From the NCBI GenBank assembly GCA_965231075.1, contig OZ246412.1, positions 385,587-449,586 of the forward strand: DNA of 64,000 nucleotides, in the 5' to 3' direction. The notes under the pieces are model-generated. The model was not told the origin of the DNA and ran no database searches. It saw only the letters and a list, made by a program, of their open reading frames with translations. Made by a program: the position numbers and the translations under genes. Source of the stretch: an uncultured Candidatus Saccharibacteria bacterium (GTDB lineage: Bacteria; Patescibacteriota; Minisyncoccia; RBG-13-40-8-A). Shown piece after piece: positions 502 through 30,057 of the stretch; positions within the stretch are counted from its first letter, which is position 1, and each line of letters begins with the position of its first letter.

Positions 502-1911
502 TTGTCAATTAAGATAAAAAGAGTTAGAATGAAAACAATTATGAAAACCAAAAAAATAATCCTTCTAATCGGAGACTTGATTATTTTATACGTGTCTTTG
601 GCTATCGCCTTAATGGTTAGGTATGGCAAATTTGATTTTGGTGTTTTTCAAAGTCATTTTGTCCCCTTTTCGATAATCTATTTATTTTGGTTGGTTGTTT
701 TTTATATTCATAACCTTTACGAACTAGACATTGCGAAAAACAACCTCAAGTTTTCAACCGCATTGTTCAGGGCGCTCATTATTGGTGGACTAATTTCGGT
801 TGTCTTCTTCTATGTTGTGCCTGGATTTACAATTAATTCTATTGCCCCAAAAACGATTTTATTTTTAAACATAATTGTTTTTATTTTCTTGTTTTATGGT
901 TGGAGATATTTTTTCAACTTATTGGCAGGCTCAATTAAATCTAAAACCAATGTCGCAATCATTGGATATAACCTGCAAGCGATTGAATTGGCTAAAGAAT
1001 TAATTAAAAACCCGCAACTTGGATACAAATTGAAATTAATCATTAAAGATGGTGAAGCAATCGATCGAACTGATTTGCCAGAAATAAAAATAATCCAAGG
1101 ATTTAAAAATTTACGCGAAACACTACAACAAGAAAAAATTTCTATCGCCGTCGTAACTCCCGAAGTTTACAAGTTTCCAAATTTAATTCAAGATCTTTTT
1201 GAGTGCATAAAATATAAAATTGATTTTGTTAATCTGCCAGAGTTCTATGAAAATATTACTCAAAAAGTGCCATTAACTGCAATTAATGAAATTTGGTTTT
1301 TAGAGAATATTTCTCAAGAAAGAAAGCAGTCTTACGAAACATTTAAAAGAGTTTTTGATTTTTGTTTCGGGGTTTTGCTCTTAATTGTCAGTTTACCTTT
1401 GTGGCCATTAATTGCTATAATTATTAAATTGGAGTCGTCGGGAAAAATATTTTATACTCAAACCAGAATTGGCAAAAGCGGAAAACCATTCGTGATGACA
1501 AAATTTAGATCAATGAAAAAAGACGCCGAAAAAAATGGTCCGCAAATGAGTCCCAAAAACGATAACAGAATAACTAAATTTGGAAACTTTTTAAGAAAAT
1601 CAAGATTTGATGAAATTCCCCAACTTTGGAATATCATTAAAGGAGAAATGAGTTTCGTTGGACCAAGAGCAGAAAGACCAGAGTTTCATCAAGAACTAAA
1701 AGAACGCATTCCCTTTTATCAAGAAAGATATCTGATTAAGCCGGGACTGTCTGGTTGGGCACAGATTAAATATGGTTACGGTTCTTCAGTTGAAGATAAT
1801 TTTGAGAAAGTACAATATGATTTATACTACATTAAACATCGTTCGTTTATTTTTGATTTAGGCATAATTCTTAAAACAATTAACATTATCCTTCGAGGAG
1901 GAGGAAGATAA
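502..1911 (+). CDS. Polyprenyl-phosphate sugar phosphotransferase (bacterial sugar transferase family, WbaP/WcaJ/CpsE-like), the initiating enzyme
   Basis: N-terminal TM helices. The C-terminal catalytic domain carries the family-typical stretch ...KFRSM...DEIPQLWNI.KGEMSFVGPRAERPEF...KPGLSGWAQI. The true start may be an internal Met (MKTIMK). Confidence 0.8.
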   Translation: MSIKIKRVRMKTIMKTKKIILLIGDLIILYVSLAIALMVRYGKFDFGVFQSHFVPFSIIYLFWLVVFYIHNLYELDIAKNNLKFSTALFRALIIGGLISVVFFYVVPGFTINSIAPKTILFLNIIVFIFLFYGWRYFFNLLAGSIKSKTNVAIIGYNLQAIELAKELIKNPQLGYKLKLIIKDGEAIDRTDLPEIKIIQGFKNLRETLQQEKISIAVVTPEVYKFPNLIQDLFECIKYKIDFVNLPEFYENITQKVPLTAINEIWFLENISQERKQSYETFKRVFDFCFGVLLLIVSLPLWPLIAIIIKLESSGKIFYTQTRIGKSGKPFVMTKFRSMKKDAEKNGPQMSPKNDNRITKFGNFLRKSRFDEIPQLWNIIKGEMSFVGPRAERPEFHQELKERIPFYQERYLIKPGLSGWAQIKYGYGSSVEDNFEKVQYDLYYIKHRSFIFDLGIILKTINIILRGGGR

Positions 1912-1914
1912 GGT

Positions 1915-2793
1915 ATGAAAAAACAATTATCAGTCATAGTCCCGGTTTACAATGAAGAAAAAATTGTTAACCAGGTAATAGAAACACTGCAACAAGAATT
2001 GACGAGGATTCCAGAATTAGAATACGAAATTATTGTAATTAACGATGCCTCAACCGACAAAAGCCGTGAGGTGTTAGAGAGAAACGACAATATTAATTTA
2101 ATTAATCATCCATATAATAAGGGATATGGAGCGAGTCTAAAGACAGGAATAAAAGAAGCAAAATTTGAATATTTGTTATTTTTTGATGCAGACAATCAGT
2201 TTCCTGCAAATAAAATAGAAGAGCTTCTTAAATACGTTCCAGATTTTGATATGGTTTCCGGAGCGCGAATTAAAGGATATAAAGGACCAGCATTAAGATT
2301 GCCCGGAAAAAGATTATTAAATCTAATGGCCAATTATTTAACAAAGACTAAAATTCCTGATTTAAATTGTGGATTTAGGGTTGTAAAAAGAAAAGAAATT
2401 TTCAAATTTTTACACCTTTTACCGCAAGGATATTCGCTTTCAACAACAAGCTTGTTGGCCTTTATTAAGGCCGGATTAAATGTTAAATTTGTCCCCATAG
2501 AAATAAAAAAACGAACAGATGGCAAAAGTATGGTTAAGCCAAGAGATGCGTTTAGAACATTTTTACTTATAGCGAGAATTATTTTGCTTTTCTCTCCGTT
2601 TAAAATTTTTTTGCCCATCAATGCAACAATACTCTTGCTTGCTATTGGCTCTGGCATATATGATATCTTTTTCAGGCCACACAATATTACTGATGCTACA
2701 ATACTTTTATTAGTGTCGTCGATCTTAATGTTTTTCTTTTCTCTTGTGGCCGACCAGTTAGCGACAATCAGACGAGAAATTAACCATGATTAA
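1915..2793 (+). CDS. Family 2 glycosyltransferase (Dpm1/GtrB-like, polyprenyl-phosphate sugar synthase type) with C-terminal TM helices
   Basis: N-terminal motif LSVIVPVYNEE, DAD/DxD region (FFDADNQ), and a C-terminal hydrophobic tail. Confidence 0.8.
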   Translation: MKKQLSVIVPVYNEEKIVNQVIETLQQELTRIPELEYEIIVINDASTDKSREVLERNDNINLINHPYNKGYGASLKTGIKEAKFEYLLFFDADNQFPANKIEELLKYVPDFDMVSGARIKGYKGPALRLPGKRLLNLMANYLTKTKIPDLNCGFRVVKRKEIFKFLHLLPQGYSLSTTSLLAFIKAGLNVKFVPIEIKKRTDGKSMVKPRDAFRTFLLIARIILLFSPFKIFLPINATILLLAIGSGIYDIFFRPHNITDATILLLVSSILMFFFSLVADQLATIRREINHD

Positions 2794-3589
2794 TCCCCTT
2801 TGTCAAAAATACGTTTGTCTTACGCTTGATTTGGAAAAAGACTATGGAAGAATAAATGCCTACTATAGTTTTAAAAACATAAAACCATTATTAGAATTGT
2901 TGAAAAAATACAACCAGAAACTAACTGTATTTGCGGCTGGAGAAATTTTAGATAAACAACCAAGTATAATAAATTTGTTCAAAGATTATCTCTGCGAATT
3001 TGAGCTTCACTCATATTCTCATACAGCAAAATCACAGATATCTGCGCTAGACAAAAAACAAGAAATAATAAATGCACAAAAGGCTTATTCGAATTTTTTT
3101 CAAAAATATCCAATGGGTTATCGCGCACCGCAAGGAGTAATATCGGAACAAGAATTAGAATGGTTAAAGAATAATAATTTCAAATACAGCTCAAGCCTAT
3201 TTCCTTCCTGGCGACCGGGATTGTTCAATAATATCCACCAGAAAACAAAGCCACATTTTAAAAGCTGCGGAATTCTAGAAATTCCGTTTTCTGTTGTCCC
3301 AAAACTAAGAATTCCTATAGCATTAAGCTACCAACAGCTTTTGGGTCTGCCTTTGTATAAACTCTGCTATCATCTTTTTGGGTTTCCGAATACAATTATT
3401 TACGATTTTCATTTATATAATCTAAACAAAACTCCGGGCAGAAAAAATTTACCGTTTTATTTGCAATTAACGTATCTTAGAAACTCAAAAAATGGACTTA
3501 AGATTTTGGAAAAATTCATAAAATTTCTACAAAAAAAATCATATCAATCCGTGTTTATGAGTGAAATATATCGTTTATGTCAAAAATAA
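2786..3589 (+). CDS. Polysaccharide deacetylase-like (CE4/NodB-homology) protein
   Basis: HSYSH motif (the second conserved CE4 motif) and a TVFAAGE segment. Divergent, so confidence is moderate. Confidence 0.45.
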   Translation: MINPLCQKYVCLTLDLEKDYGRINAYYSFKNIKPLLELLKKYNQKLTVFAAGEILDKQPSIINLFKDYLCEFELHSYSHTAKSQISALDKKQEIINAQKAYSNFFQKYPMGYRAPQGVISEQELEWLKNNNFKYSSSLFPSWRPGLFNNIHQKTKPHFKSCGILEIPFSVVPKLRIPIALSYQQLLGLPLYKLCYHLFGFPNTIIYDFHLYNLNKTPGRKNLPFYLQLTYLRNSKNGLKILEKFIKFLQKKSYQSVFMSEIYRLCQK

Positions 3590-4368
3590 AAATATTTATC
3601 ATAACCCAGGAAGAATCATTTTACCTTCCCCTTGGATTGACAAAATTAATTGAGGCAAAAAAAGAAAGTATTGTGGGAGCAACCATTCTTCCTCGCTTTA
3701 ATAAAAGGAAGTCTAAGCTTACAATATTCACAGAACTATTTTCACTGTATGGATTTAAATCCTTTGCAATTCAGAGCTTTGAATTCTTTGTTTTTAAACT
3801 TTTAAATGTCCTGACGCCAATTGTGGGTCTAAAAAGATTTTATTCTGTTAAAAAAATCTTCAAACATTTTTCAATCCCAATAATTCAAACCGAAAATATT
3901 AACAACGCCAATTATATTGAAAAACTGAAAGCAGCAAAACCGAATTTAATAATTTCTTTTGCGTGTCCGCAAATATTAAAAAAAGAAATATTATCTGTGC
4001 CCGGACTGGGGTGTATAAATGTCCACGGATCATTGCTTCCAAAATATCGCGGACGAAATATTGGATTCTGGGTTTTATTAAATCAAGAATCAGAAACAGG
4101 GGTAACCGTCCATTATATGAATGAAAAAATTGATGCTGGAGAAATAATTCTGCAAAAGAAAATTCAGGTCGCAGAAAAGGAGACAATTCACACTCTTTAT
4201 ACAAAAATATTACCATTAGAGGGCCTAGCATTGATTGAGACTGTTAATTTAATTGAAAGCAATGCAGTCAATTCATGGACAATTCAAATTAAAAAAGAGG
4301 ATTATTTCTCTGATGCCTCTATTGAGGATATTAAGAAGTTTAGAAAACTGGGAAAAAAATTTAGATAA
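3577..4368 (+). CDS. Formyltransferase-domain protein (Fmt/ArnA-N/PurN fold), probably a sugar N-formyltransferase
   Basis: Formyl_trans_N signature NVHGSLLPKYRGRN followed by VHYMNEKIDAGEII. It sits in a glycan cluster. Confidence 0.7.
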   Translation: MSKIKIFIITQEESFYLPLGLTKLIEAKKESIVGATILPRFNKRKSKLTIFTELFSLYGFKSFAIQSFEFFVFKLLNVLTPIVGLKRFYSVKKIFKHFSIPIIQTENINNANYIEKLKAAKPNLIISFACPQILKKEILSVPGLGCINVHGSLLPKYRGRNIGFWVLLNQESETGVTVHYMNEKIDAGEIILQKKIQVAEKETIHTLYTKILPLEGLALIETVNLIESNAVNSWTIQIKKEDYFSDASIEDIKKFRKLGKKFR

Positions 4369-4374
4369 ACCACA

Positions 4375-5322
4375 ATGAAAAAATTTTTATCCATTTTCAA
4401 CAAATATTCATTCGCATTGGGCATAATTTTGTTTTTGGTTATACTTTCCAAAACCGACATAAAATCAATAGCCGAAAACATAACCCACACCAATCCTTTA
4501 TACTTAATTCTTGCCCTGCTATTAGCGTTTCCGATGTTTACAATAAAAGCATTGTGTTGGAATTACATCAAAAGAAAACAGGGCATAAAATACAGCCTAA
4601 AAGATTCTTTAATAATGTATTGGGGCAGTATGTCTGCGGGGTTTATTACGCCGGGAAGGATCGGAGAATTAACAAAGGCACTGTATTTAAAAAAAGACGG
4701 ATACTCTTTTGGAAAATCGTTCGTGAGTATTTTTTTAGACAGAATCTCGGACCTGTTTTTTCTTGGATTGTTTGTAGCCATTGGCTTATTCGTTTTCTTT
4801 GTTGATGTTACAAAACAAATATATTTTATTTTATTAATTGTATTTTTAATGGCCGTAATTATAATTTTCGCAATTAAAAAAAAATGGTTTAATCGCATCC
4901 TGAAAAGTTTTTTTAGAATTATTATACCGAATAAATATAAAAATTCTTGGAAAATTAATTCTCAAGAATTTCTAAACGATATTAAGACTTACAGCGTCAA
5001 GAATTATTTAATAATATTCCTAATTACCCTATTTTCGTATTCCTTTTATTATTTACAAATGTATATTTTGGCAAAAGAGTGTAATTTAAACATTCCTTTT
5101 CCGTATTTAGCGTTCTCTTTAACCGCAACCGGCTTGATAACGCTTTTACCAATTTCTGTTTCGGGAATAGGAACCCGCGATGCTGCTTTAATTTTATTAT
5201 TTTCTTCTTTTGCTATATCAATAGAACAGGTAATTACTTTTTCTTCGCTGATTCTTTTAACCTCTTTATTTACAATGATTATTGGTATTTTTGCGTGGAT
5301 TATTAAACCGTTTCGTTTTTAG
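4375..5322 (+). CDS. Flippase-like polytopic membrane protein (UPF0104 / lysylphosphatidylglycerol-synthase TM-region-like)
   Basis: About 8 TM segments with the GRIGE motif typical of this flippase-like family. Glycan-cluster context. Confidence 0.45.
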   Translation: MKKFLSIFNKYSFALGIILFLVILSKTDIKSIAENITHTNPLYLILALLLAFPMFTIKALCWNYIKRKQGIKYSLKDSLIMYWGSMSAGFITPGRIGELTKALYLKKDGYSFGKSFVSIFLDRISDLFFLGLFVAIGLFVFFVDVTKQIYFILLIVFLMAVIIIFAIKKKWFNRILKSFFRIIIPNKYKNSWKINSQEFLNDIKTYSVKNYLIIFLITLFSYSFYYLQMYILAKECNLNIPFPYLAFSLTATGLITLLPISVSGIGTRDAALILLFSSFAISIEQVITFSSLILLTSLFTMIIGIFAWIIKPFRF

Positions 5323-6788
5323 TTTTTATTATTGCCTTTAAAATCAGCCTTAAAAAACATCCATCGCACAAAAGTAAAAGCCACAGATAATAGCGTTTTG
5401 ATATCGCTAAGTGTGCGTATTCCGCTTAATAATTTCCAGATCGCTATCGGTCTAAAATACCATTTTTTATAAGCCCTTGATGTGGCTTTTTTTATTTCTT
5501 TGTCAGATATCTCGGGATAACTGACTGCTGTTGAATAATTTTGGTCAAAATCCTCCCATCTTTTAGCAACCAGCCAGTTGTTTTTTAGAGACATTTCATA
5601 AAATTCTGTTCCCGGATAAGGAGTGGCGACAGCGAAATTAACTAAATCCAAATGAAGATTTTTTGATAATTTTATTGTTTCTTCAACCGTTTCTTTGGTT
5701 TCACCCGGCAAACCAATTATAAAATATCCCCACGCCTTAATACCGGCCTTTCGGGTTAATCTAATCGCTTCTTTTGTCTGCTCAATTGCAATCCCCTTAT
5801 TAACCATGTCCAAAACCTTCTGAGATCCGGATTCTATGCCATAACTAATCATTGCGCATCCGGCCTTTTTCATCCAAACCAACATCTCTCCGTCTACTGT
5901 ATCTACGCGACTATTGCAAATCCATCTAAATTTCCAATTTTTGTTGATTATTTCTTTACAAATATCAATCACGATGTCTTTGTTTACGGTGAAAATATCG
6001 GAATGAACGAAAAAATTCTTAACATTTATTTTTTTTAAATGTTCCAGTTCTTTAATAATGCTTTTGGCGGACCTATATCTCACCTGCCTATCCCAATTTA
6101 TCGGCGATCTGCAGAAAACACAACGATAAGGACACCCCCTGCTTGTCATCACAAAAGTATATCTTTTGCCAATAAAAGGAAGGGTGTACTTATCAATCGG
6201 CAAAAGTTCGTGAAGCGGTATAGGCAAGGAATCAAGATCCTTTATAAGTGGTCTTTTCCCCGTAGAAATTATTTTGCCTTTGTCCCTAAAACAAATCCCC
6301 TTGATTTTTGCAAAATCATCTATTGCGATTTTTTGCTCTATTGAATTTATAAGGTCTCTAATTGTTTCTTCTGCTTCTCCAAGAATGGCAAAATCAATAA
6401 AAGAAAAATCTTTCAGTGTCTGCTCCGGCAAAACAGTGACATGCGGACCAACAACAATTGTTGTGGCGCCGATTTTTTTACCGATTTCAGCGGCTTTAAC
6501 GTCATTGTTGATTGTTGAACTAATAACGTTGATCAATAAATAGTCCGGCTGTTTTTGTTGTATTATTCTTTCGAACGCGTTCCAATATATTTTTTCGGCA
6601 ATACAATCCATTATCTCAACCTCAAATCCATTTTCCTTCACAACCGCAGCCAAATAAGCTAAATTGGTCTGGGGCCAAATTGTTTTCTCCATACTGGTTC
6701 TGCCCGAACGATCTATGTCACGAATAATTACCACTCCTTTTTGAGGGGTAGGCGGATTAATAAATAAAATTTTTCTTTTTTCTGTCAT
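5319..6788 (-). CDS. B12-binding radical SAM enzyme (class B rSAM, candidate methyltransferase)
   Basis: N-terminal cobalamin-binding-like Rossmann segment, then radical-SAM cluster motif SRGCPYRCVFC (CxxxCxxC). Confidence 0.8.
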   Translation of the reverse strand: MTEKRKILFINPPTPQKGVVIIRDIDRSGRTSMEKTIWPQTNLAYLAAVVKENGFEVEIMDCIAEKIYWNAFERIIQQKQPDYLLINVISSTINNDVKAAEIGKKIGATTIVVGPHVTVLPEQTLKDFSFIDFAILGEAEETIRDLINSIEQKIAIDDFAKIKGICFRDKGKIISTGKRPLIKDLDSLPIPLHELLPIDKYTLPFIGKRYTFVMTSRGCPYRCVFCRSPINWDRQVRYRSAKSIIKELEHLKKINVKNFFVHSDIFTVNKDIVIDICKEIINKNWKFRWICNSRVDTVDGEMLVWMKKAGCAMISYGIESGSQKVLDMVNKGIAIEQTKEAIRLTRKAGIKAWGYFIIGLPGETKETVEETIKLSKNLHLDLVNFAVATPYPGTEFYEMSLKNNWLVAKRWEDFDQNYSTAVSYPEISDKEIKKATSRAYKKWYFRPIAIWKLLSGIRTLSDIKTLLSVAFTFVRWMFFKADFKGNNKN

Positions 6789-7528
6789 TGTTTTTCGGCT
6801 AATATCATAATTCCGAATGATTGTTTGTTAATTACTGGTATTTTGGATATTAACTCGTCAAATTTAATTAAAGCTGGAATTAAAATCTTTTTCAAGGGTA
6901 AATACTTAAAAACATCCAAAACATCAGGAAATCCCATTAACGGATAGGCCATGTAGCCGAAATAATATTTTTTTATTATTGCCAGCTCCGAACCCATAAT
7001 TTCTATTAATTCTTCTTCCTTAAAATTCTTATGTTCGTCAGAAAAATGTTTATTCTTTTTGTACATTATTTTTCTAGGCAAATCACTTAAAAAAGAATTA
7101 TGTGTATCGGCAAAAATTACCCTTCCTCCGCTTTTTAAAACCCTTTTAATCTCTCTTGCTCCTTGTTTGGGGTCGGACAAATGATGCAGTAAGCTTCTCG
7201 CAATTACAACATCAAAGGTATTATCCGGAAAGGGCAGGTTTTGAGCATCGCCCTGAACCGCTTTTTTCATCCTTGTTCGTGCATACTTTATCATTTTCTC
7301 TGAGATATCTATGCCCGTAACATCATATTTGTTTAAAAATTTTTCTGCAAAATATCCGGTGCCACAGCCGACATCAAGTATTTTTCCGTTTGGCCCAACC
7401 AAATCAATCATCTTCTTAGACCACCAATTTTGATATTTTACAGAATATCCTTTGGTGTATCTTTGTTCTTCGTAATATTTTGCCGCATAATCCTGCGTTT
7501 CTTGTTCTTTTCTATTCTTCATAAGCAC
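6785..7528 (-). CDS. Class I SAM-dependent methyltransferase (Methyltransf_11-like)
   Basis: SAM-binding motif I ILDVGCGTGYF and post-I acidic residue DIS. Confidence 0.8.
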   Translation of the reverse strand: MLMKNRKEQETQDYAAKYYEEQRYTKGYSVKYQNWWSKKMIDLVGPNGKILDVGCGTGYFAEKFLNKYDVTGIDISEKMIKYARTRMKKAVQGDAQNLPFPDNTFDVVIARSLLHHLSDPKQGAREIKRVLKSGGRVIFADTHNSFLSDLPRKIMYKKNKHFSDEHKNFKEEELIEIMGSELAIIKKYYFGYMAYPLMGFPDVLDVFKYLPLKKILIPALIKFDELISKIPVINKQSFGIMILAEKQ

Positions 7529-13017: not shown

Positions 13018-13777
13018 TGTTCTTTATAGCTTCACTATTAGTTAAATATTTTATATTTTCTCGATTGGCTATGTGTCCAAAAATTTCTTCAACCTTATTC
13101 CATAAATTATGTTTTTCAATTTCCCAGGAATGTCCATATAGATGAAAAACTCCGCCATTTTTTAAAACACAACCAAACACATTCTTAACGAGCCTTTTCC
13201 AACCAAAGATTGAGTTTATAGGAAGCTTGAGCTTAATCACCCCTCTCAACACCCTAAATGCCCTGTATATTAAAACTTTAAATTTATATCTTAAACTCCA
13301 ATTTTTGGGCATAGAAAAAATTGGCCCCAAACAAACAGAAACCCCCATCAAAAAAGAATCCGTTATGTTGATCTGAAATAATTTAGTTGTTCTGGCACCA
13401 ATAAATCCTGATTGCTTAATTATTTTTATTGATTCCGACGTACATACTCCGCCGGGAAAGGCAAACACTTGTATCGATTCTTGAATTAAACTTTCTAACC
13501 ATTGTTTGGATCCGATTATCTCTTCTTCAACAGATCTTTGCGCTTTGTTTAAATAAACGTGAGTTAGTGTATGGGCGCCTATTTCTTGGGTTCTAGCAAT
13601 ATCGACTATTTCTTGTTCTGAAAGCAATTTAAGATGTTCGAATTTTTCTACTTCTAATTCAATTTTCTTAGGAATATAAAAAGTTCCCCTTAGGTTGTGT
13701 TTGTTTAAATATTCTAAAATTTTTAAATCTTCTTTTGCGCCATCATCCCAGCTGGTTGTAACAATAATTTTTTTCAT
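12995..13777 (-). CDS. Polysaccharide deacetylase (CE4/NodB homology)
   Basis: TTSWDDG (motif 1, TFDDG-like) and HTLTH (motif 2). Confidence 0.7.
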   Translation of the reverse strand: MKKIIVTTSWDDGAKEDLKILEYLNKHNLRGTFYIPKKIELEVEKFEHLKLLSEQEIVDIARTQEIGAHTLTHVYLNKAQRSVEEEIIGSKQWLESLIQESIQVFAFPGGVCTSESIKIIKQSGFIGARTTKLFQINITDSFLMGVSVCLGPIFSMPKNWSLRYKFKVLIYRAFRVLRGVIKLKLPINSIFGWKRLVKNVFGCVLKNGGVFHLYGHSWEIEKHNLWNKVEEIFGHIANRENIKYLTNSEAIKNNENSFIK

Positions 13778-22973: not shown

Positions 22974-23329
22974 TGTCGTAAATATTTTTTAAGACTTAAT
23001 AATTTAATAAAAATTTTATCTATTTTGTTATTACTCGACTCTATTTCGTTAGAAGAAATATATTTCAAATTCAATGCTATCTTTAGTGCCGTCTTAACCT
23101 CTACGAGGGAACCCAACGATATATCAACGAAACGAGCAAAATCCTTCTTAGTTTTTATGCTTCCTTCTGCGATATTTAATGCGACCGAAATAACTGCTCT
23201 TTTTATTTGTGCGCCCAACACAAACATCTCTTCTTTGGGAAATGTCCTAGTCAAACTATAAACATCTTCAATTAAACTCATAGACAATTGATATACTTCT
23301 AGTTTTTCAAAATTATATTCTTGAGTCAT
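22970..23329 (-). CDS. Four-helix-bundle protein (23S rRNA intervening-sequence protein family; DGR Avd-like fold)
   Basis: Family signature ...LEVYQLSMSLIEDVYSLTRTFPKEE...LGAQIKRAVISVALNIAEGS.... It is flanked by inverted GTTCGAR repeat copies. Confidence 0.7.
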   Translation of the reverse strand: MTQEYNFEKLEVYQLSMSLIEDVYSLTRTFPKEEMFVLGAQIKRAVISVALNIAEGSIKTKKDFARFVDISLGSLVEVKTALKIALNLKYISSNEIESSNNKIDKIFIKLLSLKKYLRQ

Positions 23330-23343
23330 GATCTTATTTTTTT

Positions 23344-25584
23344 TTAATTATCAGAATCAGAACTGCGAACATCGAACTTCGAACTTATCAACCGTTGATA
23401 AGTTAATGCATAATTTTCTATTGCTTTTTTACGTTCAAATTGTTGAACGGTTTGATAGCCATTTTCAGCAATTTTATTTCTTAAATTGTCGTCCTTTAAT
23501 AATAACATTATTTTATTGACAATATCTTCAATTTTCCAATCAACGAAAATACCATTTTCCATGTCCTTAATGATATCGTTCATTATTCCGACCCTACTCG
23601 TTAAAACTGGAATTTTACACGCCATTGCTTCAAGTGTTACCCTGGGACCACCCTCATTGAAAGATAGCATCGCCATCAATCTTGATTGATTATAAATACC
23701 AGCAACATCATTGGTGGTCGGCAACCATCCAGAAAATTCTATGTTGTTTTGTAGGTTATTTTTCTTGATAAATTTTTCTATCTTTGGTTTTAATGGTCCA
23801 TCACCCACGATAATAAGTTTAGGGTTCAGGGTTTTCAATTTAGAATTTGCTATTGCGCGTAGCAATAGAAATATCCCCTTGTTTTTTACTAATCTTCCAG
23901 AAAAAACAATATCATATTTTTTCTCTAAATTAATCGGCTTAAAAATATCTAGATCAATATAGAAAGCGGGAACATACTTTATCTTTTCCTTGTCAATTTT
24001 GAATTTAATTAAAAATTCTGGGACCTGATTTTGATTAATAACCCTAACTGCTCTCGCGTTTTTGGTAAATTTCTTAATAAATATTTTAGTTAAAATTTTG
24101 TAAAACCATTCCTTGCAATTGCCTGCTTTTGGATAGCCGGTTATGTGCATAATTTCTAAAAGATAGGGAGTTTTTATCTTTTTATGCAACCATAAGCCAC
24201 CAACATCATTATAAAATGGCGGATAGGAGTGAATTGTAAATAAATCAAATTTTTGTTGTTTAAAAATTTCTGTTCCTTTTTTTAATACAAACCAGGGTTG
24301 CAAAATTAACGGCAAATTTGACGAATGAATAAACACGTTCCCGAAAATATTATCGATTTTTTGTTCTGTTCGTGGACAAATTATATCAATTCTCTCCCAG
24401 CTTTTTGAAAATTCCTCCAACATATAATAAAATGGCCCATGTTTACCACCTGCCAACGCCCTATCTCCAGTTATCATAAGTAATTTTCGGCCCGAGGCCG
24501 ACCCGCCCTGGGCGGGCATCAACGCTTTAATAGTTTCGTTGATCATTCTTTTTAATTCGAATTGTTTTAATTTTTTATACCCATTTTCAATAAATTTCTT
24601 CCTCAAGTCTTCATCTTTCCATAATCTTAAAATAGCATTCTTTAATTGCTCTTTGTCGTTATATCTCACCAGTAAACCATTAAATTCATTTTCTATTACT
24701 TCCGGATTGCCACAAACACTAGTAGTAATTATTGGCAAACCGCAGGCCATTGCCTCTAAAAGTAAATGTGATAAACCTTCGTATCCCGTGTTTAAGACAA
24801 AAATATCACCACCCTTAAAACGAGCCATTAATTCTTTGTGAGGCATTTTCGTTTCAATAATCAATCTAAAATTTGGGTTTTCTTTTAATAGGTCTGGTAG
24901 AATTTCTTTAAGTGTATCGAAACCCTTCCATGGTTCCGGTCTGCCTGCGGAAATAATTACATCACCTTCTAACTTTTCTGGTGCAACATCTTCTACCCCT
25001 CGAAACGCGTTATAAATGACGATTATTTTATCGGCGTTAATCCCCCACCCAACCACTATTTTCTTTAAATATTCACTAGGAACAATCACTTTGCCAGCAC
25101 TACCAACAACTTTTTTTTGAATTTTTCTTCTTAATTCAGTTTTCCAATCATATTTTTTATTCTGAAACTCGTCAATAAGGTCAATTGTTTCTTGTTTCTT
25201 GTTTCTTGTTTCTTCGTTCTGGTACTGTTCCCATGCGTAATCACCTACAATTTTAATTATAAATTTCTTCTTTAAAATTTTAGAAATTAACATCGCTGGT
25301 AGACCAGCTGACAATGGTCCTTGAGCATAAATAATGTCTGCGTTTTTTGCTAATTTAAACAAATTCTTGAAATAATTAAGATATCGTTTTAATGTATTTT
25401 GTTTTCGCAATATTCTAATTATTCTAAATTTCTCATATTTATCATTTTCCTCGTATTTATCGCCATAACAAATTAAATCAACCTCAATTCCTTGATCGCT
25501 AAATTCCCTCGCAATTAACTGCGAGTATGTTGCCGGTCCACCGCTATCCGGTGGATATATTCCTGATGCAATTACAATTTTCAT
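23344..25584 (-). CDS. Fused tandem GT4 glycosyltransferase (two complete GT-B units)
   Basis: Two C-terminal-type GT4 motifs (LLEAMACGLPIITTS and LEAMACKIPVLTSRVG) plus two N-terminal halves (MKIVIASGIYPPDSGG and a PAQGGSASGRKLLMITGD region). Confidence 0.75.
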   Translation of the reverse strand: MKIVIASGIYPPDSGGPATYSQLIAREFSDQGIEVDLICYGDKYEENDKYEKFRIIRILRKQNTLKRYLNYFKNLFKLAKNADIIYAQGPLSAGLPAMLISKILKKKFIIKIVGDYAWEQYQNEETRNKKQETIDLIDEFQNKKYDWKTELRRKIQKKVVGSAGKVIVPSEYLKKIVVGWGINADKIIVIYNAFRGVEDVAPEKLEGDVIISAGRPEPWKGFDTLKEILPDLLKENPNFRLIIETKMPHKELMARFKGGDIFVLNTGYEGLSHLLLEAMACGLPIITTSVCGNPEVIENEFNGLLVRYNDKEQLKNAILRLWKDEDLRKKFIENGYKKLKQFELKRMINETIKALMPAQGGSASGRKLLMITGDRALAGGKHGPFYYMLEEFSKSWERIDIICPRTEQKIDNIFGNVFIHSSNLPLILQPWFVLKKGTEIFKQQKFDLFTIHSYPPFYNDVGGLWLHKKIKTPYLLEIMHITGYPKAGNCKEWFYKILTKIFIKKFTKNARAVRVINQNQVPEFLIKFKIDKEKIKYVPAFYIDLDIFKPINLEKKYDIVFSGRLVKNKGIFLLLRAIANSKLKTLNPKLIIVGDGPLKPKIEKFIKKNNLQNNIEFSGWLPTTNDVAGIYNQSRLMAMLSFNEGGPRVTLEAMACKIPVLTSRVGIMNDIIKDMENGIFVDWKIEDIVNKIMLLLKDDNLRNKIAENGYQTVQQFERKKAIENYALTYQRLISSKFDVRSSDSDN

Positions 25585-25586
25585 GC

Positions 25587-26120
25587 TTAATTAATCGTTG
25601 TCTCCGTGGTCAATTTTCTTTTGCTCATAAAAGACACTGCTAATTCATAAACTCCAAATAAAATTGCGACATAGAACAGGTCACCCATTAATGTCCCCCT
25701 AAAAAACGGGATCGCCATTGTAAAACATTGACCCAGACCAGCCAGAGTGTGCGGATACCAACTATAAAATGCCCAAACCGCAAAATTAGTAATCACAAAA
25801 AACAATACAGACCCCAAAAGCGTGCTACCAATTATAGTGCCAATATTTTTATGTTTTTTAACAAACAACCCAATTAAACCAACCAGAATAAAACTTAAAT
25901 ATACCCCTGCCATTAATTTAATGTCGTAAAAACCAATAAAATAGTCGCTAATCAGCATCGCTATAATTGGAAACAACAATGCATATTTTTTATTAAGATA
26001 AATTCCTCCAAACAAAGCCATCGCCGTAATTGGGGCAAAATTTGGAAAATGAGGGGCAAATCTCAACGCCACCCCCAAAACCACAAAAATTATAGCTAAC
26101 CACGAAATAGTCTTCTTCAT
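25587..26120 (-). CDS. Small polytopic membrane protein of unknown function
   Basis: About 5 TM helices; no recognisable catalytic motif. Confidence 0.35.
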   Translation of the reverse strand: MKKTISWLAIIFVVLGVALRFAPHFPNFAPITAMALFGGIYLNKKYALLFPIIAMLISDYFIGFYDIKLMAGVYLSFILVGLIGLFVKKHKNIGTIIGSTLLGSVLFFVITNFAVWAFYSWYPHTLAGLGQCFTMAIPFFRGTLMGDLFYVAILFGVYELAVSFMSKRKLTTETTIN

Positions 26121-26178
26121 GTTTTTTACTTATTAATTGTTATTTCTATCTTGATGTTAAGTTTAAAGTGATGTATAA

Positions 26179-27258
26179 TTGTCATTAATAGGTTATATGT
26201 ATTTTACGTTCCCACAATTTAAAAAGTTTCCGATAAAATTGCTTTTCAGAAAATTCTCTGAAAATTTTTTGTTAGAAAAACTGCAAAATATTTTTCCTAA
26301 TTATCACATTATCTTCACGGACTCTGGACGTTCGGCGTTTCAATTGGCAATCGAATCTTTGGGCTTACAGAATACTGAAATGATTCTCCCGGCCTATCTT
26401 TGCGACATCTTTAAACCAATCCTTAAACATTATGATATTAAACCCATACATATAGATACTAACTTGGAAACGTTCCAAATGGAATTATCGGAAATTGATT
26501 CTCAAATCACTCCCAACACTAAATCGATTTTAATCTCTCACACCTACGGACTACCTGTTGACATGGAACAGGTTTCTCGAATTGCCAGAAATTACAATTT
26601 AAAAATCATCGAAGATTGTGCTCATATCGCTCCGCCAGATTCTCCAGAAAAATTCGGCGATGCTTTATTTTTTAGCTTCGCTAAATTATTTCCAGTTATT
26701 AGTGGAGGCATGCTTGTTTCAAAAGAAAATATCAATATTAAACTAGAAAAAACTAAAATTACTTTTCGAAGCGTTATCAAATTTCTAAGACTCTTCCCTT
26801 CCCTAGCTAACCTTTCCGAGATATTTAGGCCCGAGGAAAAATTAATCGAAAATCAACGCTCTGTTCCTAAAAAACCATTAAAAATCTATTTAAATATCAC
26901 AGACTATTGTTTAGAAAGGTTGCCGGAAAAAATTATTCAACGGATTAAAATTGCAAGTTATTTTCAAAAACAATTACAGAAACTTAATTTTAAAGTGCAA
27001 ACATCTGAAAACAATAATTTCACCATACTTTCTGCCCTTGTTCCAGAAAGCGCTGATCGCGACAAATTATTTTACGGCCTAAGAAAACGCGGCATTTTCT
27101 GTGCTAGGATCTGGCGAAATCCTTTATTAAAACAACTACCCAACACCTCTTTAATTTCCAAACAAATTATTAATTTTCCTCTACAGTACTGGTATAAAGA
27201 AAAAGATGTTGATAAAATTATATTCTATATTTTAAAAGAATTGGACTCAAAAGTTTAA
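26179..27258 (+). CDS. DegT/DnrJ/EryC1/StrS-family PLP-dependent sugar aminotransferase
   Basis: IIEDCAHI segment and SFAKLF (PLP-Lys context). Confidence 0.65.
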   Translation: MSLIGYMYFTFPQFKKFPIKLLFRKFSENFLLEKLQNIFPNYHIIFTDSGRSAFQLAIESLGLQNTEMILPAYLCDIFKPILKHYDIKPIHIDTNLETFQMELSEIDSQITPNTKSILISHTYGLPVDMEQVSRIARNYNLKIIEDCAHIAPPDSPEKFGDALFFSFAKLFPVISGGMLVSKENINIKLEKTKITFRSVIKFLRLFPSLANLSEIFRPEEKLIENQRSVPKKPLKIYLNITDYCLERLPEKIIQRIKIASYFQKQLQKLNFKVQTSENNNFTILSALVPESADRDKLFYGLRKRGIFCARIWRNPLLKQLPNTSLISKQIINFPLQYWYKEKDVDKIIFYILKELDSKV

Positions 27259-28222
27259 TTATAAAATTGGGCAACAAAATAAACAGATTTCTTACTCTCG
27301 AAGAACGTAGTTTTTCGGGATTTTTTTCTTTTTTCAAAATGATTATCGGATATTCTTTGCCTCCCCATCCAGATTTAAACGTGAAAAGAGATGAATTTTT
27401 GGGAGTTGCTCCAAGGTCCAAGATAATATCTTGGCCGACTAAGCTTTCTATCTTATTCCAAAGAATGAGATAATTTGCCCCCAGGTTCTTATGTTTTTGA
27501 TCAGAGGCACTTAAAAAATAGTGCACAAAACCTGAATATTCTACAAATAGGCTACCTCCCACGATTTTATCCCTATCAAAGACCAATAAAAGCTCGCTAG
27601 GCGCATTTTTATAGAGAAACTGAATCAGTAACCAGGGATACGGAATTGTCTTTTTGCGCCTTAAATTTGCAACATATAAATTGTAAAACTTTTTTAACTC
27701 TTTTAGATTCTCACATTTTCTAACCACTAAATTTTGGTCTTGGGCGTGTTTAATTTCGTGTCTCAACGTCTTTCTAAAAGAATCCCAAATTTCTTGTGCT
27801 GATTTATTTTTAAAATTCTCAAGCCAATGGGTTGTTAGGTTCGAAGTTCGAGGTTCGAGGTTGTGAGTTATGGGTTCGAGGTTTGAAATTTGAAGTATTT
27901 GTGGGTGAAATTTTACTTTAATTCTCTCGCCAAATTCCTTAAAGACATCTTTTTCAAATTCTTGTAAATTGATTTCGCCGTTTAAAATTAACGGTCCTCC
28001 ATATTCACAGAACGGCAATGAAATAATTTTCTCTTTGTTGAAAATTCTAAATTTAGCTATCGGAAATATTATTTCGGACCCATATAAATAATATTCGAAA
28101 AAAATCCATCTAAACTGTTTCTCTAAAAATTCATGCCAATCGGCATTATGAAAAAAGGTGCTAAATTTTGTTCTATTAAATAATTCTCTATACTGATTTC
28201 TGGTTATTTTTGTAAAATTCAT
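27218..28222 (-). CDS. FemAB/BioF2-like GNAT-fold acyl/aminoacyl transferase (candidate sugar N-acyl or aminoacyl modifier)
   Basis: Weak resemblance to the FemAB / Acetyltransf_6 family; contains a long in-frame GTTCGAR repeat insertion. Start placed at the internal Met (MNFTKITRNQ) rather than the ORF-track start 28255; either way it overlaps the next gene. Confidence 0.35.
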   Translation of the reverse strand: MNFTKITRNQYRELFNRTKFSTFFHNADWHEFLEKQFRWIFFEYYLYGSEIIFPIAKFRIFNKEKIISLPFCEYGGPLILNGEINLQEFEKDVFKEFGERIKVKFHPQILQISNLEPITHNLEPRTSNLTTHWLENFKNKSAQEIWDSFRKTLRHEIKHAQDQNLVVRKCENLKELKKFYNLYVANLRRKKTIPYPWLLIQFLYKNAPSELLLVFDRDKIVGGSLFVEYSGFVHYFLSASDQKHKNLGANYLILWNKIESLVGQDIILDLGATPKNSSLFTFKSGWGGKEYPIIILKKEKNPEKLRSSRVRNLFILLPNFIIKLLSPILLKYRI

Positions 28223-28994
28223 AAATTTGTTCTCCGGACTTAAACTCGTAACCAATTTCTTTTAAAAATTTCATGATTTCATCAAGTTGTTTTATAAAAT
28301 CCTTACCACTATTTTTTGATCCTTTACCTTCAAATTTTACGCCATCCCACGAATGCATGCTTAGACTTATAAAATTCGGCTTTCTAAATTTAAAAATAAA
28401 TTTAAAGAATTTAACACCCAACTTTCTTAACCATGTTCCCACAAAAGGAACACTGAATGGTGCGGGACTTTCCGGTATTTCAAGAATCCCAACACCTCCC
28501 TTCTTTTTATAATTTTTTTCATTTGGCCAATAGGGAACGACTGGCGCTTTTCCCAAATAACCGGCATATGCACCAATTCTCCAGGGATAGCGTGGAAATA
28601 CGCTAGAGTCATAAATAAACCCATATCTTGCCAAAATTGGAAATTGCTTATTGTCGATTACGTTTCTTGGACCCCTGAAACCCTTTGGTGTATCGTTAAA
28701 GACATTTTTATATAGGTTGTAAAAGTTCTTAATTTGTCTTTCTCTTTCTGAAAGATCAATTCTATTTAATTGGTTATGAAAATAATTATGGCAACCAATT
28801 TCAAAATCTTTTGCCCATCTTTTAACTAAATCTGGAGAATATTCCAAAACCTCGCCAGTAACAAAAAGCGTTGCCGGAGCATCATATTTTCTAAAAACGC
28901 TCAAAATATTGTCTAAATTATCAACCCCCTCGAAAGGACGGTCTATTTGATTTTCGCGCTTTTCAACGTCAATTGACAGAAAACAAGTTTTCAT
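28188..28994 (-). CDS. Polysaccharide deacetylase-like (CE4-related) protein
   Basis: HNYFHN (CE4 motif 2-like) and TLFVTGE. Divergent. Confidence 0.45.
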   Translation of the reverse strand: MKTCFLSIDVEKRENQIDRPFEGVDNLDNILSVFRKYDAPATLFVTGEVLEYSPDLVKRWAKDFEIGCHNYFHNQLNRIDLSERERQIKNFYNLYKNVFNDTPKGFRGPRNVIDNKQFPILARYGFIYDSSVFPRYPWRIGAYAGYLGKAPVVPYWPNEKNYKKKGGVGILEIPESPAPFSVPFVGTWLRKLGVKFFKFIFKFRKPNFISLSMHSWDGVKFEGKGSKNSGKDFIKQLDEIMKFLKEIGYEFKSGEQIYEFYKNNQKSV

Positions 28995-30057
28995 ACTGTT
29001 TTATCATTTCACTTAGATTAAATTTTTCGGTAACTGTTTTTTTGGCATTGTTAATTAATTTGTCCTGCAAGTGTTTATCTTTTAATAATTTTTGTACCGC
29101 CTCCACAATTTTTTCTGGTTTGCCAGGTTCAATTAAAATCCCGTTTTCGTTATTTTGAATAATATCTGGCACCGCGCCAACTTTGGTGGCAATAATTGGA
29201 ACCTCCGCTGCCATTGCTTCTAACACAACCCAAGGAAAACCTTCTTTTACAGACGGCAAAACAAAAACATCAAATGCTTTTAAATATTTGTGGGCATTTG
29301 GAATTCCACTTAATATTACAATTTTAAACTCGGATAATTTCTTTTCCGCCTCTCTTAAGTATTTCAGTCCTTTGGCCGGATAATCGTTTGCTATCGTGCC
29401 GACAATTATATCGTTGGAGTTTGGGATTTGATTAGATAAATTAGAATAATTAGAAATTAGGTTAATTAATTTTTGTTTTGCCTCCTCTCTGTCTAGAAAT
29501 TCCATCTTTTCGATATCAATTCCATTGTGAATGGTTAAAATTTCTTTCTTTGGTTTGATGCCCAATTTTATGGCCTGTTGTCTATCTGGTTCGGCATTGT
29601 TAATAATATAATCTTTCCACTTAGCAGAAAATTTCTCGATAAATCTTAGATAATGATTTATTAAAAAACACCTCGGATCATTAAATGACCAACCCCCGAT
29701 TCTGTAAATAATTTTATTTACCTTATTCTTTCCTGCCCAAGCACCTAAAAATCCTGCCTTAGAACTACACAAAAACAGGATATCTGGTTTTTCTTTTTTT
29801 AATAATTTTCTAATCTCAAAAAACCCCAGTAAATCAAAAAAGGGATTAACCGAGCGTCTTAGATTTTTTAATCGCTCTACTTTAATCCCCCGATTAGATA
29901 ATAAATTTAAAAGTCCGTTTTCGTCATCACCTTCTGGTCCAGCACTCACTACAATTTCGTATCTATTAATATTGCTTACAAGCTCATAAATAAAACGCTG
30001 AGCTCCGCCAAACTCAGACTGTGTTACCAAAAACAGGATTTTTTTCCTATTATCCAT
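28969..30057 (-). CDS. GT4-family glycosyltransferase
   Basis: EGFPWVVLEAMAAEVPIIATKVGAVPDII. Confidence 0.8.
   Translation of the reverse strand: MDNRKKILFLVTQSEFGGAQRFIYELVSNINRYEIVVSAGPEGDDENGLLNLLSNRGIKVERLKNLRRSVNPFFDLLGFFEIRKLLKKEKPDILFLCSSKAGFLGAWAGKNKVNKIIYRIGGWSFNDPRCFLINHYLRFIEKFSAKWKDYIINNAEPDRQQAIKLGIKPKKEILTIHNGIDIEKMEFLDREEAKQKLINLISNYSNLSNQIPNSNDIIVGTIANDYPAKGLKYLREAEKKLSEFKIVILSGIPNAHKYLKAFDVFVLPSVKEGFPWVVLEAMAAEVPIIATKVGAVPDIIQNNENGILIEPGKPEKIVEAVQKLLKDKHLQDKLINNAKKTVTEKFNLSEMIKQYENLFSVN

Follow-up and report, generated by a model that had tools for sequence, protein, structure and literature searches.

We analyzed a stretch of 64,000 nucleotides (here called the window) of contig OZ246412.1, from an uncultured Candidatus Saccharibacteria bacterium. 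It holds a surface-glycan island of ∼31 kb with a GC content of about 33% in which three genes code for radical S-adenosylmethionine (SAM) enzymes with a B12-binding domain (rSAM1, rSAM2, and rSAM3). What would radical enzymes of this kind do among genes for glycan assembly? Genes were called from a listing of open reading frames (ORFs), and the window proteins were then scanned with the hidden Markov models (HMMs) of Pfam and NCBIfam. The scans confirmed nearly the entire gene list of an original prediction made from the DNA letters alone: an initiating polyprenyl-phosphate glycosyl-1-phosphate transferase (PGT), one family 2 glycosyltransferase (GT2), seven GT4 domains, a Wzx flippase, and a flippase-like protein were all found where they had been placed. 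The predicted formyltransferase, DegT aminotransferase, FemAB-like transferase, AsnB amidotransferase, and three CE4 deacetylases were likewise recovered, and the island is indeed heavy in tailoring enzymes. What did not hold up was the description of these genes as one glycan pathway. The island is composite, given that a cassette of GT2, flippase-like, rSAM1, methyltransferase, and GT-C-like genes stands alone in other phyla.

The core of the island is a predicted assembly line for a lipid-linked oligosaccharide. At its left end lies the 5′ part of a Wzy_C and TPR gene (1 to 470, minus strand, ATG at 470), which leaves the window and encodes 749 amino acids (aa) on the source contig. Wzy_C is the family of O-antigen ligases, polymerases, and O-oligosaccharyltransferases, and in this protein TPR repeats follow at the C terminus. 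The protein could be a polymerase or ligase or, alternatively, a PglL-like O-oligosaccharyltransferase. The PGT gene comes next (502 to 1911, plus strand; PF02397 [Bac_transf], 222 bits; TIGR03025, 377 bits, above the cut-off of 295.6), an arrangement also present in L118, a related Patescibacteria locus. The Wzx-type flippase is encoded at 9097 to 10350 (plus strand; PF01943, 75 bits). The seven GT4 domains are spread over six genes, all on the minus strand: GT4a (11797 to 13017; PF00534, 117 bits, and PF13439, 93 bits), GT4b (15029 to 16108; PF00534, 131.5 bits), GT4c (19256 to 20410; PF00534, 94 bits), GT4d (21828 to 22973; PF00534, 132.5 bits), a double GT4 with two domains (23344 to 25584; PF00534, 236 bits over two stretches), and GT4e (28969 to 30057; PF00534, 106 bits). 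A PGT, a Wzx flippase, a Wzy_C-family protein, and multiple glycosyltransferases therefore share one locus, which is the gene set looked for in Wzx/Wzy-type assembly.

The three rSAM genes are on the minus strand, at 5319 to 6788 (rSAM1; PF02310, 61 bits; PF04055, 101 bits; CPYRCVFC at residue 219), 10347 to 11804 (rSAM2; 60 and 89 bits; CPHRCGFC at residue 200), and 20410 to 21831 (rSAM3; 68 and 103 bits; CPNNCVYC at residue 204). All three proteins exceed the gathering scores of the B12-binding (PF02310, 32.1) and Radical_SAM (PF04055, 29.5) models, with an N-terminal Rossmann-type domain before the TIM-barrel core. The class-B domain architecture that had been proposed for them was thus borne out by sequence and, for rSAM1 and rSAM3, also by AlphaFold (AF2) models that lie near the structures of B12-rSAM enzymes. 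Each protein has a single CxxxCxxC, whose cysteines are invariant across the rSAM1 and rSAM3 ortholog alignments. With a pairwise identity of 30 to 31%, the three are old paralogs and not recent duplicates. Additional invariant cysteines were seen in the rSAM1 family (C62, C277, and C311) and in the rSAM3 family (C260 and C294, the equivalents of rSAM1 C277 and C311), and rSAM2 has C259; these residues may bind an auxiliary cluster or serve as a hydrogen-atom donor.

To which families do these enzymes belong? The best curated match of rSAM1 was HpnJ (TIGR03471), over the full length, with 280 bits against a cut-off of 577.6, and BchE was second with 236 bits. HpnJ was also the top match for the orthologs of rSAM1 (241 to 248 bits) and for its GT2-adjacent cousins in Chloroflexota, Acidobacteriota, and DPANN archaea (about 190 to 305 bits), where its lead over the runner-up was 45 to 120 bits. 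For rSAM2 the best curated match was BchE (TIGR02026; 174 bits, cut-off 481), and for rSAM3 the matches were BchE (204 bits), ApyD (195 bits), and BzaD (175 bits), all below cut-off. Since ApyD, BzaD, HpnJ, and others score close to BchE for both proteins, their curated scores give no family assignment. None of the three reached the BchE cut-off, and no tetrapyrrole genes are present in the island. The methylase models scored lower still with respect to their cut-offs: for rSAM1, rSAM2, and rSAM3, respectively, QCMT (TIGR04014) gave 168, 111, and 98 bits versus 360; HpnR gave 96, 70, and 106 bits versus 650; KedN5 gave 93, 59, and 72 bits versus 700; and the C-methyltransferase model for ribosomally synthesized and posttranslationally modified peptides (RiPPs; TIGR03975) gave 91, 102, and 139 bits versus 282. 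No match from any GenK, Fom3, or MoeK5 model was reported in the NCBIfam scan. RiPP maturation, hinted at by the ApyD and TIGR03975 matches, was rejected on context, as the surrounding genes are glycan genes only and neither a precursor nor a protease gene was seen.

The AF2 model of rSAM1 (mean predicted local distance difference test [pLDDT], 90.4) was closest in the PDB to AprD4 (TM-score 0.78/0.84), followed by QCMT, TsrM, OxsB, CysS, and TokK, and AprD4 was also the best PDB sequence match of rSAM1 (112 bits). The identity of 9CCB, a structure match of rSAM1, was taken from the literature (PMC12931638). For the rSAM3 model (pLDDT 87.1), TsrM, OxsB, AprD4, QCMT, CysS, and TokK were about equal at a TM-score of ∼0.7, with AprD4 among the top three. 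Both models superpose on TsrM, OxsB, QCMT, CysS, and TokK with TM-scores of 0.64 to 0.73, and the solved B12-rSAM structures were all matched by the two models at about 0.65 to 0.78. The model confirms the fold of rSAM3 without settling its function.

The original prediction had read the three rSAMs as three C-methylations. The class-B architecture supports this reading, but no methylase cut-off was reached, and the best matches are non-methylases. For rSAM1, the matches to HpnJ and AprD4 amount in part to the grouping with non-methylating enzymes that had been named as evidence against the prediction. This grouping is not decisive, because a published similarity network, drawn at a stringent threshold, groups HpnJ with Fom3 and MoeK5, which are methylases (PMC9204698), so that likeness to HpnJ does not decide between rearrangement and methylation. 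Because most characterized class-B rSAMs are methylases (PMC9204698; PMC12931638), C-methylation would be the single most likely chemistry, with ring contraction and dehydration as live alternatives, especially for rSAM1.

The rSAM1 gene is part of the cassette mentioned above. Its GT2 (1915 to 2793, plus strand; PF00535, 108 bits) is of the polyprenyl-phosphate-sugar-synthase type, with a GT-A domain and two C-terminal transmembrane helices (segments 217 to 253 and 261 to 279). Five of its six best NCBIfam matches are polyprenyl- or dolichyl-phosphate sugar synthases (AglJ, PgfS, a dolichyl-phosphate-hexose transferase, ArnC, and PpgS), all below cut-off. Next to rSAM1 lies an LPG_synthase_TM flippase-like protein of the HpnL/MprF-TM family (4375 to 5322, plus strand; PF03706, 164 bits; TIGR00374, 109 bits, above the cut-off of 43), which scores 27 bits on the HpnL model (cut-off 196). 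On the other side is MT11, a class-I SAM methyltransferase (6785 to 7528, minus strand; PF08241, 106 bits), which is the constant partner of rSAM1. The last member is a polytopic membrane protein with about 10 to 11 hydrophobic segments (7512 to 9098, minus strand; the gene caller places its start at ∼9044). It had been called a putative GT-C or polymerase. The window protein itself falls short of the PMT_2 gathering score (21 versus 26.1 bits), but in its family of 190 representatives, 19 of 45 members match PMT_2 (best E value, 5.8e-9). PDB searches with the single sequence and with 5- and 45-member profiles returned nothing significant. On sequence grounds, this protein is probably a divergent PMT_2-like GT-C.

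Is this cassette specific to the window? We collected loci with rSAM1 orthologs at a score of at least 480 bits, excluding the source contig (n = 25, from a metagenome scan and from contigs that encode the orthologs). A profile search of genome contigs with the rSAM1 alignment gave, among the matches listed, only relatives at 30 to 43% identity. Orthologs of rSAM1 at 47 to 70% identity or higher occur in Patescibacteria, Omnitrophota, Margulisiibacteriota, Planctomycetota, Acidobacteriota, Sumerlaeota, and Micrarchaeota. A GT2 ortholog was present in 19 of the 25 loci (144 to 254 bits), and an MT11 ortholog was adjacent in 21 of the 25 (20 of them at 124 bits or more and L118 at 54 bits). The loci that lack a GT2 or MT11 ortholog all have less than 1.2 kb of flank on at least one side. 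At least eight loci (L003, L004, L086, L097, L100, L108, L112, and L118) have the flippase-like protein beside the rSAM1 ortholog, a CE4 gene lies between GT2 and the methyltransferase gene in two (L094 and L099), and homologs of the GT-C candidate stand beside rSAM1 or rSAM2 orthologs in four (L085, L091, L118, and L119). In the Planctomycetota locus L003, no other match to island genes was found within ∼4 kb of the cassette, and in L004 the cassette is flanked by marginal GT4 matches only; it also occurs in L002 (Margulisiibacteriota). Locus L118 from Patescibacteria has the order of the window (Wzy_C/TPR, PGT, GT2, flippase-like protein, rSAM1, methyltransferase, GT-C, rSAM2, and GT4) without CE4a and the formyltransferase. 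Because L118 has the same order without these two genes, they are an insertion into the cassette in the window genome. A small ferredoxin gene lies between the cassette GT2 and PGT in L118 (17040 to 17408), with no counterpart seen in the window; its product could pass electrons to the rSAMs.

The other two rSAM genes are paired with GT4 genes. The rSAM2 and GT4a genes overlap by 8 bp, rSAM3 and GT4d overlap by 4 bp, and rSAM3 and GT4c overlap by 1 bp, which suggests translational coupling. Portnoybacteria, Nealsonbacteria, and other Patescibacteria have many orthologs of rSAM3 (53 to 89% identity), and the 90% cluster of rSAM3 includes a member named Candidatus Portnoybacteria. Orthologs of rSAM2, at 50 to 70% identity, were found in Patescibacteria and Nanoarchaeota. 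The pairings are conserved: the order GT4d-rSAM3-GT4c(-AsnB) recurs in L115, L116, and L117, with the GT4c ortholog downstream of rSAM3 in all three, the GT4d ortholog upstream in L115 and L116, and AsnB included in L115 and L117, and GT4a-rSAM2 recurs in L119 and L118. Judged by contigs of equal length among the ortholog matches of rSAM1, rSAM2, and rSAM3, several contigs hold orthologs of two or three of the window rSAMs, as directly confirmed in L118. In the related Patescibacteria islands, one (L116), two (L118), three (L117 and L119), or five (L115) rSAM genes were counted. Among the matches listed, we also found tandem arrays of B12-rSAM paralogs, with up to nine within ∼19 kb, in an unclassified bacterial metagenome-assembled genome (L023), in Bathyarchaeia (L038 to L041), and in Aenigmatarchaeota (L021), next to GT2, GT4, methyltransferase, DegT, and AsnB genes. 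The load of three rSAMs, from which an unusually C-methylated polymer had been predicted, is therefore within the range of related islands and below the maximum of nine in other uncultivated lineages. The gene set of L021 resembles that of the window (DegT, GT2, two rSAMs, flippase-like protein, AsnB, methyltransferase, GT4, rSAM, and GT4). In L119 (14418 to 14538, where the gene leaves the locus, and 4531 to 6619), a B12-rSAM is fused to a class-I methyltransferase in a protein of 749 aa, and an ABC2/Wzt_C ATP-binding cassette exporter takes the place of Wzx. In the searchable literature, we found no description of B12-rSAMs in capsule, O-antigen, S-layer, or candidate phyla radiation (CPR) glycan clusters.

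The remaining island genes encode tailoring enzymes and passengers. CE4a, a deacetylase or deformylase with HSxxH and RxPxG motifs (2786 to 3589, plus strand; PF01522, 48 bits), overlaps both the GT2 gene and the gene of a sugar N-formyltransferase-like protein (3577 to 4368, plus strand; PF00551, 106 bits). The best NCBIfam match of the latter is the ArnA N-terminal domain (129 bits, below cut-off), and its HxSLLPxxRG motif is intact (NVHGSLLPKYRG). The enzyme supports the N-formylated polymer of the original prediction, but a transient formyl group of the Arn type would also agree with the overlap of the GT2, CE4, and formyltransferase genes. Both readings stand side by side: the formyl group could be removed again, as in Arn, or retained in the polymer. 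CE4b (12995 to 13777, minus strand; PF01522, 48 bits) has TxxDD and HTxxH motifs, and beside its gene are two class-I methyltransferase genes, MTb (13774 to 14445, minus strand; PF08241, 54.5 bits) and MTc (14372 to 15025, minus strand; PF08241, 41 bits). Together with MT11, these are three solid class-I methyltransferases, whereas the fourth of the at least four SAM methyltransferases that had been counted is marginal. This 467-aa soluble protein (16111 to 17514, minus strand) matches only Methyltransf_23/12/11, over residues 311 to 401 (Methyltransf_23, 28.3 bits versus a gathering score of 27, residues 311 to 399), consistent with a marginal class-I methyltransferase fold at its C terminus. 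It had been described as a ParB/Srx-FkbM fusion, a call without support from the HMMs: neither ParBc/Srx nor FkbM (Methyltransf_21) gave a match even at E ≤ 1. A ParB/Srx-like motif, LADGRHRL, is visible by eye only, within the N-terminal 300 aa. A PDB sequence search with this protein gave nothing significant, and a WbdD match at an E value of 0.4 was not used.

AsnB, a glutamine amidotransferase (17460 to 19268, minus strand; PF00733, 277 bits; TIGR01536, 510 bits, above the cut-off of 267), most plausibly amidates a uronic acid, by analogy with MoeF5 and WbpS, which are the precedents for amidation by AsnB-type enzymes. At the right end of the island are genes for a DegT/DnrJ/EryC1 sugar aminotransferase (26179 to 27258, plus strand; PF01041, 103 bits; best NCBIfam match ArnB, 59 bits, below cut-off), a FemAB-like aminoacyl- or acyltransferase of GNAT fold (27218 to 28255, minus strand; PF02388, 28.6 bits; PF13480, 27.5 bits; TIGR03019, 76 bits, below cut-off), and the deacetylase CE4c (28188 to 28994, minus strand; PF01522, 56 bits). 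The block of GT4e, CE4c, FemAB-like, DegT, and a beta-helix gene is syntenic in L116 and would yield an N-acylated amino sugar. Two genes had been missing from the earlier list. One, at 22970 to 23329 (minus strand), encodes a 119-aa four-helix-bundle protein of the “23S rRNA intervening sequence (IVS)”/bAvd-like family (PF05635, 106 bits; TIGR02436, 100 bits) and is a passenger inside the GT4 operon. One GT4 of L116 has a PDDEXK_3 domain, another “IVS-protein” family, at its N terminus. The other, at 25587 to 26120 (minus strand), encodes a small polytopic membrane protein of the DUF6580 family (177 aa, five to six hydrophobic segments; PF20221, 177 bits), with no match in PDB or NCBIfam and nothing relevant in the literature searched. 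It has the size and shape of an energy-coupling factor-type S component, and our guess is that it could be a candidate for vitamin uptake. A 37-nucleotide inverted repeat (84% complementary, with GTTCGA(A/G)G units) was also seen, with one copy at the 3′ end of the double-GT4 gene (23357 to 23393) and the other inside the FemAB-like gene (27830 to 27866), where it encodes a repeated NLEP peptide.

The island ends with a 460-aa right-handed beta-helix (NosD-like) protein that is membrane anchored or secreted (30091 to 31473, minus strand; PF13229, 40 bits; PF05048, 35 bits; N-terminal hydrophobic segment, 14 to 32). An ortholog lies at the island edge in L116, and the gene is thus a conserved edge of the island. 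Beyond it is the gene of a 1221-aa secreted protein, a candidate surface or S-layer protein (31611 to 35276, minus strand), with a signal peptide and a composition rich in Thr, Ala, Gly, and Ser (21% Ser+Thr). It has no match in Pfam, NCBIfam, or PDB and forms a singleton cluster. The original prediction had placed the island directly beside this gene as a possible target. The gene is adjacent, but the 460-aa beta-helix gene and a strong intrinsic-terminator-like hairpin (31528 to 31559, minus strand; 14-bp stem and T run) stand between. This terminator directly follows the 1221-aa gene, which lies 5′ of the island on the minus strand and is a separate, terminated transcription unit. S-layer glycosylation by the island is possible, with adjacency as the sole link to this gene. 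Promoter-like sites between 25000 and 37000 were no commoner than in shuffled sequence and were not used. Directly 5′ of the 1221-aa gene are genes for a DUF5667 protein with a single transmembrane segment (35371 to 36192, minus strand) and for an extracytoplasmic function (ECF) sigma factor (36304 to 36867, minus strand), which may form a sigma/anti-sigma pair that controls it. The rest of the window contains, on the minus strand, genes for a 1049-aa surface protein with beta-helix and lamin-tail domains (37370 to 40519), ClpB (42017 to 44650), and a type IV pilus (within 48655 to 55725), of which PilB (51412 to 53148) and PilM (54634 to 55725) were confirmed and the ORFs between the confirmed pilus genes down to 48655 were guessed to be PilT/PilC. 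The type IV pilus, ClpB, the ECF/DUF5667 pair, the large beta-helix surface proteins, and a GC content of ∼33% in the island fit a CPR genome.

How do these genes work together? The best explanation in our view, which we hold with moderate confidence, is a composite envelope-glycan island of Patescibacteria (Portnoybacteria-like) in which a Wzx/Wzy-type assembly line and a separate cassette are combined and lipid-linked sugars are tailored by radical enzymes. Gene content, pairings, and conservation were observed directly, and the chemistry that follows is conditional. In one system (PGT, the seven GT4 domains, Wzx, and the Wzy_C+TPR protein), an oligosaccharide would be assembled at the cytoplasmic face, with a polyprenyl diphosphate as its carrier. 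rSAM2 and rSAM3 would each modify the sugar just added by the neighboring GT4 on the lipid-linked intermediate. Radical C-H activation would start this modification, and cobalamin-mediated C-methylation, as carried out by GenK and GenD1 on aminoglycoside sugars and by MoeK5 in moenomycin, would be its most likely result. AsnB would amidate a uronic acid, the CE4 enzymes would expose amines, DegT and the FemAB-like protein would make and acylate an amino sugar, and the class-I methyltransferases would add O- or N-methyl groups. In the other system (GT2, flippase-like protein, rSAM1, MT11, and GT-C-like protein, with CE4a and the formyltransferase in addition), GT2 would load one sugar, probably an amino sugar, onto polyprenyl phosphate or another membrane lipid. 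rSAM1, which resembles HpnJ, MoeK5, and Fom3, and MT11 would then tailor the lipid-linked sugar in the cytoplasm, and CE4a and the formyltransferase may provide Arn-style formyl-on/formyl-off handling in the window genome. The LPG_synthase_TM protein would flip the lipid-linked sugar, and the GT-C-like enzyme would transfer it outside the membrane to decorate the glycan or a surface protein.

Several observations weigh against this explanation. None of the three rSAMs reaches a curated family cut-off in NCBIfam, and their nearest curated or structural neighbors, HpnJ, BchE, and AprD4, are all non-methylases. The lipid acceptor of GT2 is deduced solely from sub-threshold family likeness, the GT-C candidate of the window lies below the Pfam threshold for PMT_2, and no homology to this candidate was detected in the large membrane proteins that flank the cassette in other phyla. 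The gene overlaps hint at functional pairing between rSAM and GT4 without proving it. Cobalamin binding, furthermore, is not readable from sequence, and AprD4, which has the same fold, shows that such a Rossmann domain at the N terminus can be free of cobalamin. The 64-kb window had no Rfam match, hence no cobalamin riboswitch, and no recognizable B12 uptake gene.

The island resembles several known systems. The cassette and its neighbors recall the Arn (PmrHFIJKLM) and Gtr/CsbB-YfhO/PpgS systems, with a Pol-P-sugar-synthase-type GT2 that has C-terminal transmembrane helices and with a flippase-like protein. In addition, the best matches of the formyltransferase and of DegT are the ArnA N-terminal domain and ArnB, a CE4 lies beside the formyltransferase in the position of ArnD, and the PMT_2-type GT-C candidate would correspond to ArnT. 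GT2, CE4a, the formyltransferase, DegT, and the PMT_2-type GT-C candidate could thus supply every Arn activity, by functional analogy only. The equivalog cut-offs are far away (ArnC, 56.5 versus 529 bits; ArnA, 129 versus 777 bits; ArnB, 59 versus 631 bits), and no island CE4 matched ArnD in NCBIfam. The island also lacks the ArnA decarboxylase domain and ArnE/F, its flippase candidate is of another family, it adds a B12-rSAM and a methyltransferase, and lipid A as usually understood cannot serve as its acceptor. With Wzx/Wzy or PglL-type clusters, such as S-layer slg clusters, the window shares a PGT, Wzx, a Wzy_C-family protein, many GT4s, and tailoring by CE4, methyltransferase, AsnB, and DegT enzymes. 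It differs from them in the C-terminal TPR repeats of its Wzy_C protein and in the interleaving of B12-rSAM with glycosyltransferase genes, which we did not see in characterized clusters in the literature searched. MoeK5 C-methylates a lipid-phosphoglycerate-linked sugar of moenomycin and works beside the AsnB-like MoeF5/MoeH5. As proposed for the window rSAMs, GenK, GenD1, and Fms7 (aminoglycosides), MoeK5, and AprD4 are radical enzymes for the sugar carbons of glycosides or lipid-linked saccharides (PMC9204698; PMC12931638). Those enzymes belong to actinomycete secondary metabolism, whereas the window encodes primary envelope-glycan assembly in CPR; AprD4, moreover, is a dehydratase without cobalamin.

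Could the island nonetheless be one linear pathway to one polymer, with all three rSAMs acting as cobalamin C-methyltransferases and with a C-methylated, N-formylated, and amidated glycan placed on the adjacent 1221-aa protein? The B12 and rSAM domains of all three proteins, the prevalence of methylases among characterized class-B rSAMs, the intact formyltransferase motif, the presence of AsnB, the secreted and Ser+Thr-rich 1221-aa protein, and a Wzy_C+TPR protein that could be a PglL-like O-oligosaccharyltransferase are all consistent with this account. We consider it unlikely, given that the rSAM1 cassette is independent and occurs without the GT4 island, that the best family matches are non-methylases, that the overlapping GT2, CE4, and formyltransferase genes fit transient formylation too, and that the 1221-aa gene, which is only adjacent, is separately transcribed and terminated. 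In a different account, the rSAM1 cassette makes a membrane glycolipid head group: GT2 would glycosylate a lipid, the deacetylase would free the amine, rSAM1 would contract the pyranose to a cyclitol, MT11 would methylate it, and the LPG_synthase_TM protein would flip it outward. The model for such a pathway is the hopanoid module HpnI/HpnK/HpnJ/HpnL. HpnJ is proposed to carry out a ring contraction to bacteriohopanetetrol cyclitol ether, as is Cds to calditol (PMC13459092); its conversion of hopanoid-linked glucosamine to the cyclitol ether is genetically supported, and it works with HpnI, HpnK, and HpnL (PMC13459092; PMC9204698). The cassette mirrors this module with the same four clustered activities (GT2, deacetylase, B12-rSAM, and LPG_synthase_TM protein, the last sharing a Pfam family with HpnL), and in both a radical enzyme would act on a lipid-linked (amino)hexose. 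Among curated families, HpnJ ranks first for rSAM1, for its orthologs, and for its GT2-adjacent cousins, and neither PGT nor Wzx nor GT4 genes accompany the cassette in L003 and L004, apart from the marginal GT4 matches of L004. Yet the scores of rSAM1 and the flippase-like protein fall far short of the HpnJ and HpnL equivalog cut-offs (280 versus 577.6 bits and 27 versus 196 bits), and the activity of HpnJ itself has never been demonstrated in vitro (PMC13459092). GT2 resembles Pol-P-sugar synthases and has no HpnI match, the deacetylase is CE4 where the hopanoid module has a YdjC-type enzyme, and the cassette has an extra class-I methyltransferase. A GT-C-like transferase is part of the Patescibacteria version and implies a role as donor, and no hopanoid genes (shc, hpnH, hpnG, hpnI, or hpnK) were among the 40 window proteins scanned. 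A glycolipid product is, in our judgment, improbable.

The remaining account concerns the cofactor. Some or all of the rSAMs could be cobalamin-free enzymes of non-methylating radical sugar chemistry (AprD4-type 1,2-diol dehydration, epimerization, or oxidation), with a Rossmann domain that is structural. Class-B rSAMs have no conserved cobalamin ligand motif; the cofactor is bound base-off, and the residues on its lower face vary (PMC12931638). The rSAM3 sequence DAHTYG (residues 44 to 49) was considered as a classical DxHxxG cobalamin motif and rejected as evidence, being unlikely to be the classical His-on motif; in MetH-type B12 domains the motif follows beta1, whereas in the AF2 model of rSAM3 it follows beta2 (residues 39 to 44). 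D44 and H46 are invariant in 25 orthologs. AprD4, a cobalamin-free paromamine diol-dehydratase, ranks first in the PDB for rSAM1 by both sequence and fold and is in the top three for rSAM3, and the window has no B12 riboswitch. Moreover, Patescibacteria are in general not known to produce cobalamin. On the other hand, the AprD4 family model (NF033070) gives just 126, 68, and 90 bits for rSAM1, rSAM2, and rSAM3 against a cut-off of 500, PF02310 is well over its gathering score in all three, and the true cobalamin enzymes QCMT, TsrM, OxsB, CysS, and TokK match nearly as well. Nor was an AprD3-like partner reductase recognized in the island. These data leave only a slim chance for enzymes that work without cobalamin, and we keep to the composite island with C-methylation as the most likely radical chemistry.

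The components of this island are of known kinds, while its arrangement and the three rSAM subfamilies are uncharacterized. Cobalamin-dependent rSAMs are among the largest and least characterized enzyme groups, and what is known of their sugar chemistry was learned almost wholly from antibiotic pathways. The island and its relatives place three distinct conserved rSAM subfamilies inside envelope-glycan assembly, where the neighboring glycosyltransferases provide substrate hypotheses, and the compact four-to-six-gene rSAM1 cassette, which is spread over phyla, is open to reconstitution. A broader reading, which we put forward tentatively and with some doubt, is that B12-domain rSAMs carry out routine, glycosyltransferase-paired tailoring of envelope glycans in CPR, DPANN, and other uncultivated anaerobes and that the cassette is an unrecognized, widespread cousin of the HpnI/J/K/L pathway for a C-methylated or ring-rearranged lipid-carried sugar. 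Should the rSAMs be cobalamin free, they would extend AprD4-type chemistry. If they are active and use cobalamin, CPR and DPANN surface polymers would contain C-methylated, deoxygenated, or carbocyclic sugars as yet unreported from cell-surface polymers, and envelope synthesis would depend on an external vitamin, which bears on the symbiotic lifestyle of these organisms. Routine B12-rSAM tailoring, if true, would tie the building of the envelope in B12-auxotrophic, ultra-small cells to cobalamin scavenged from their hosts or neighbors.

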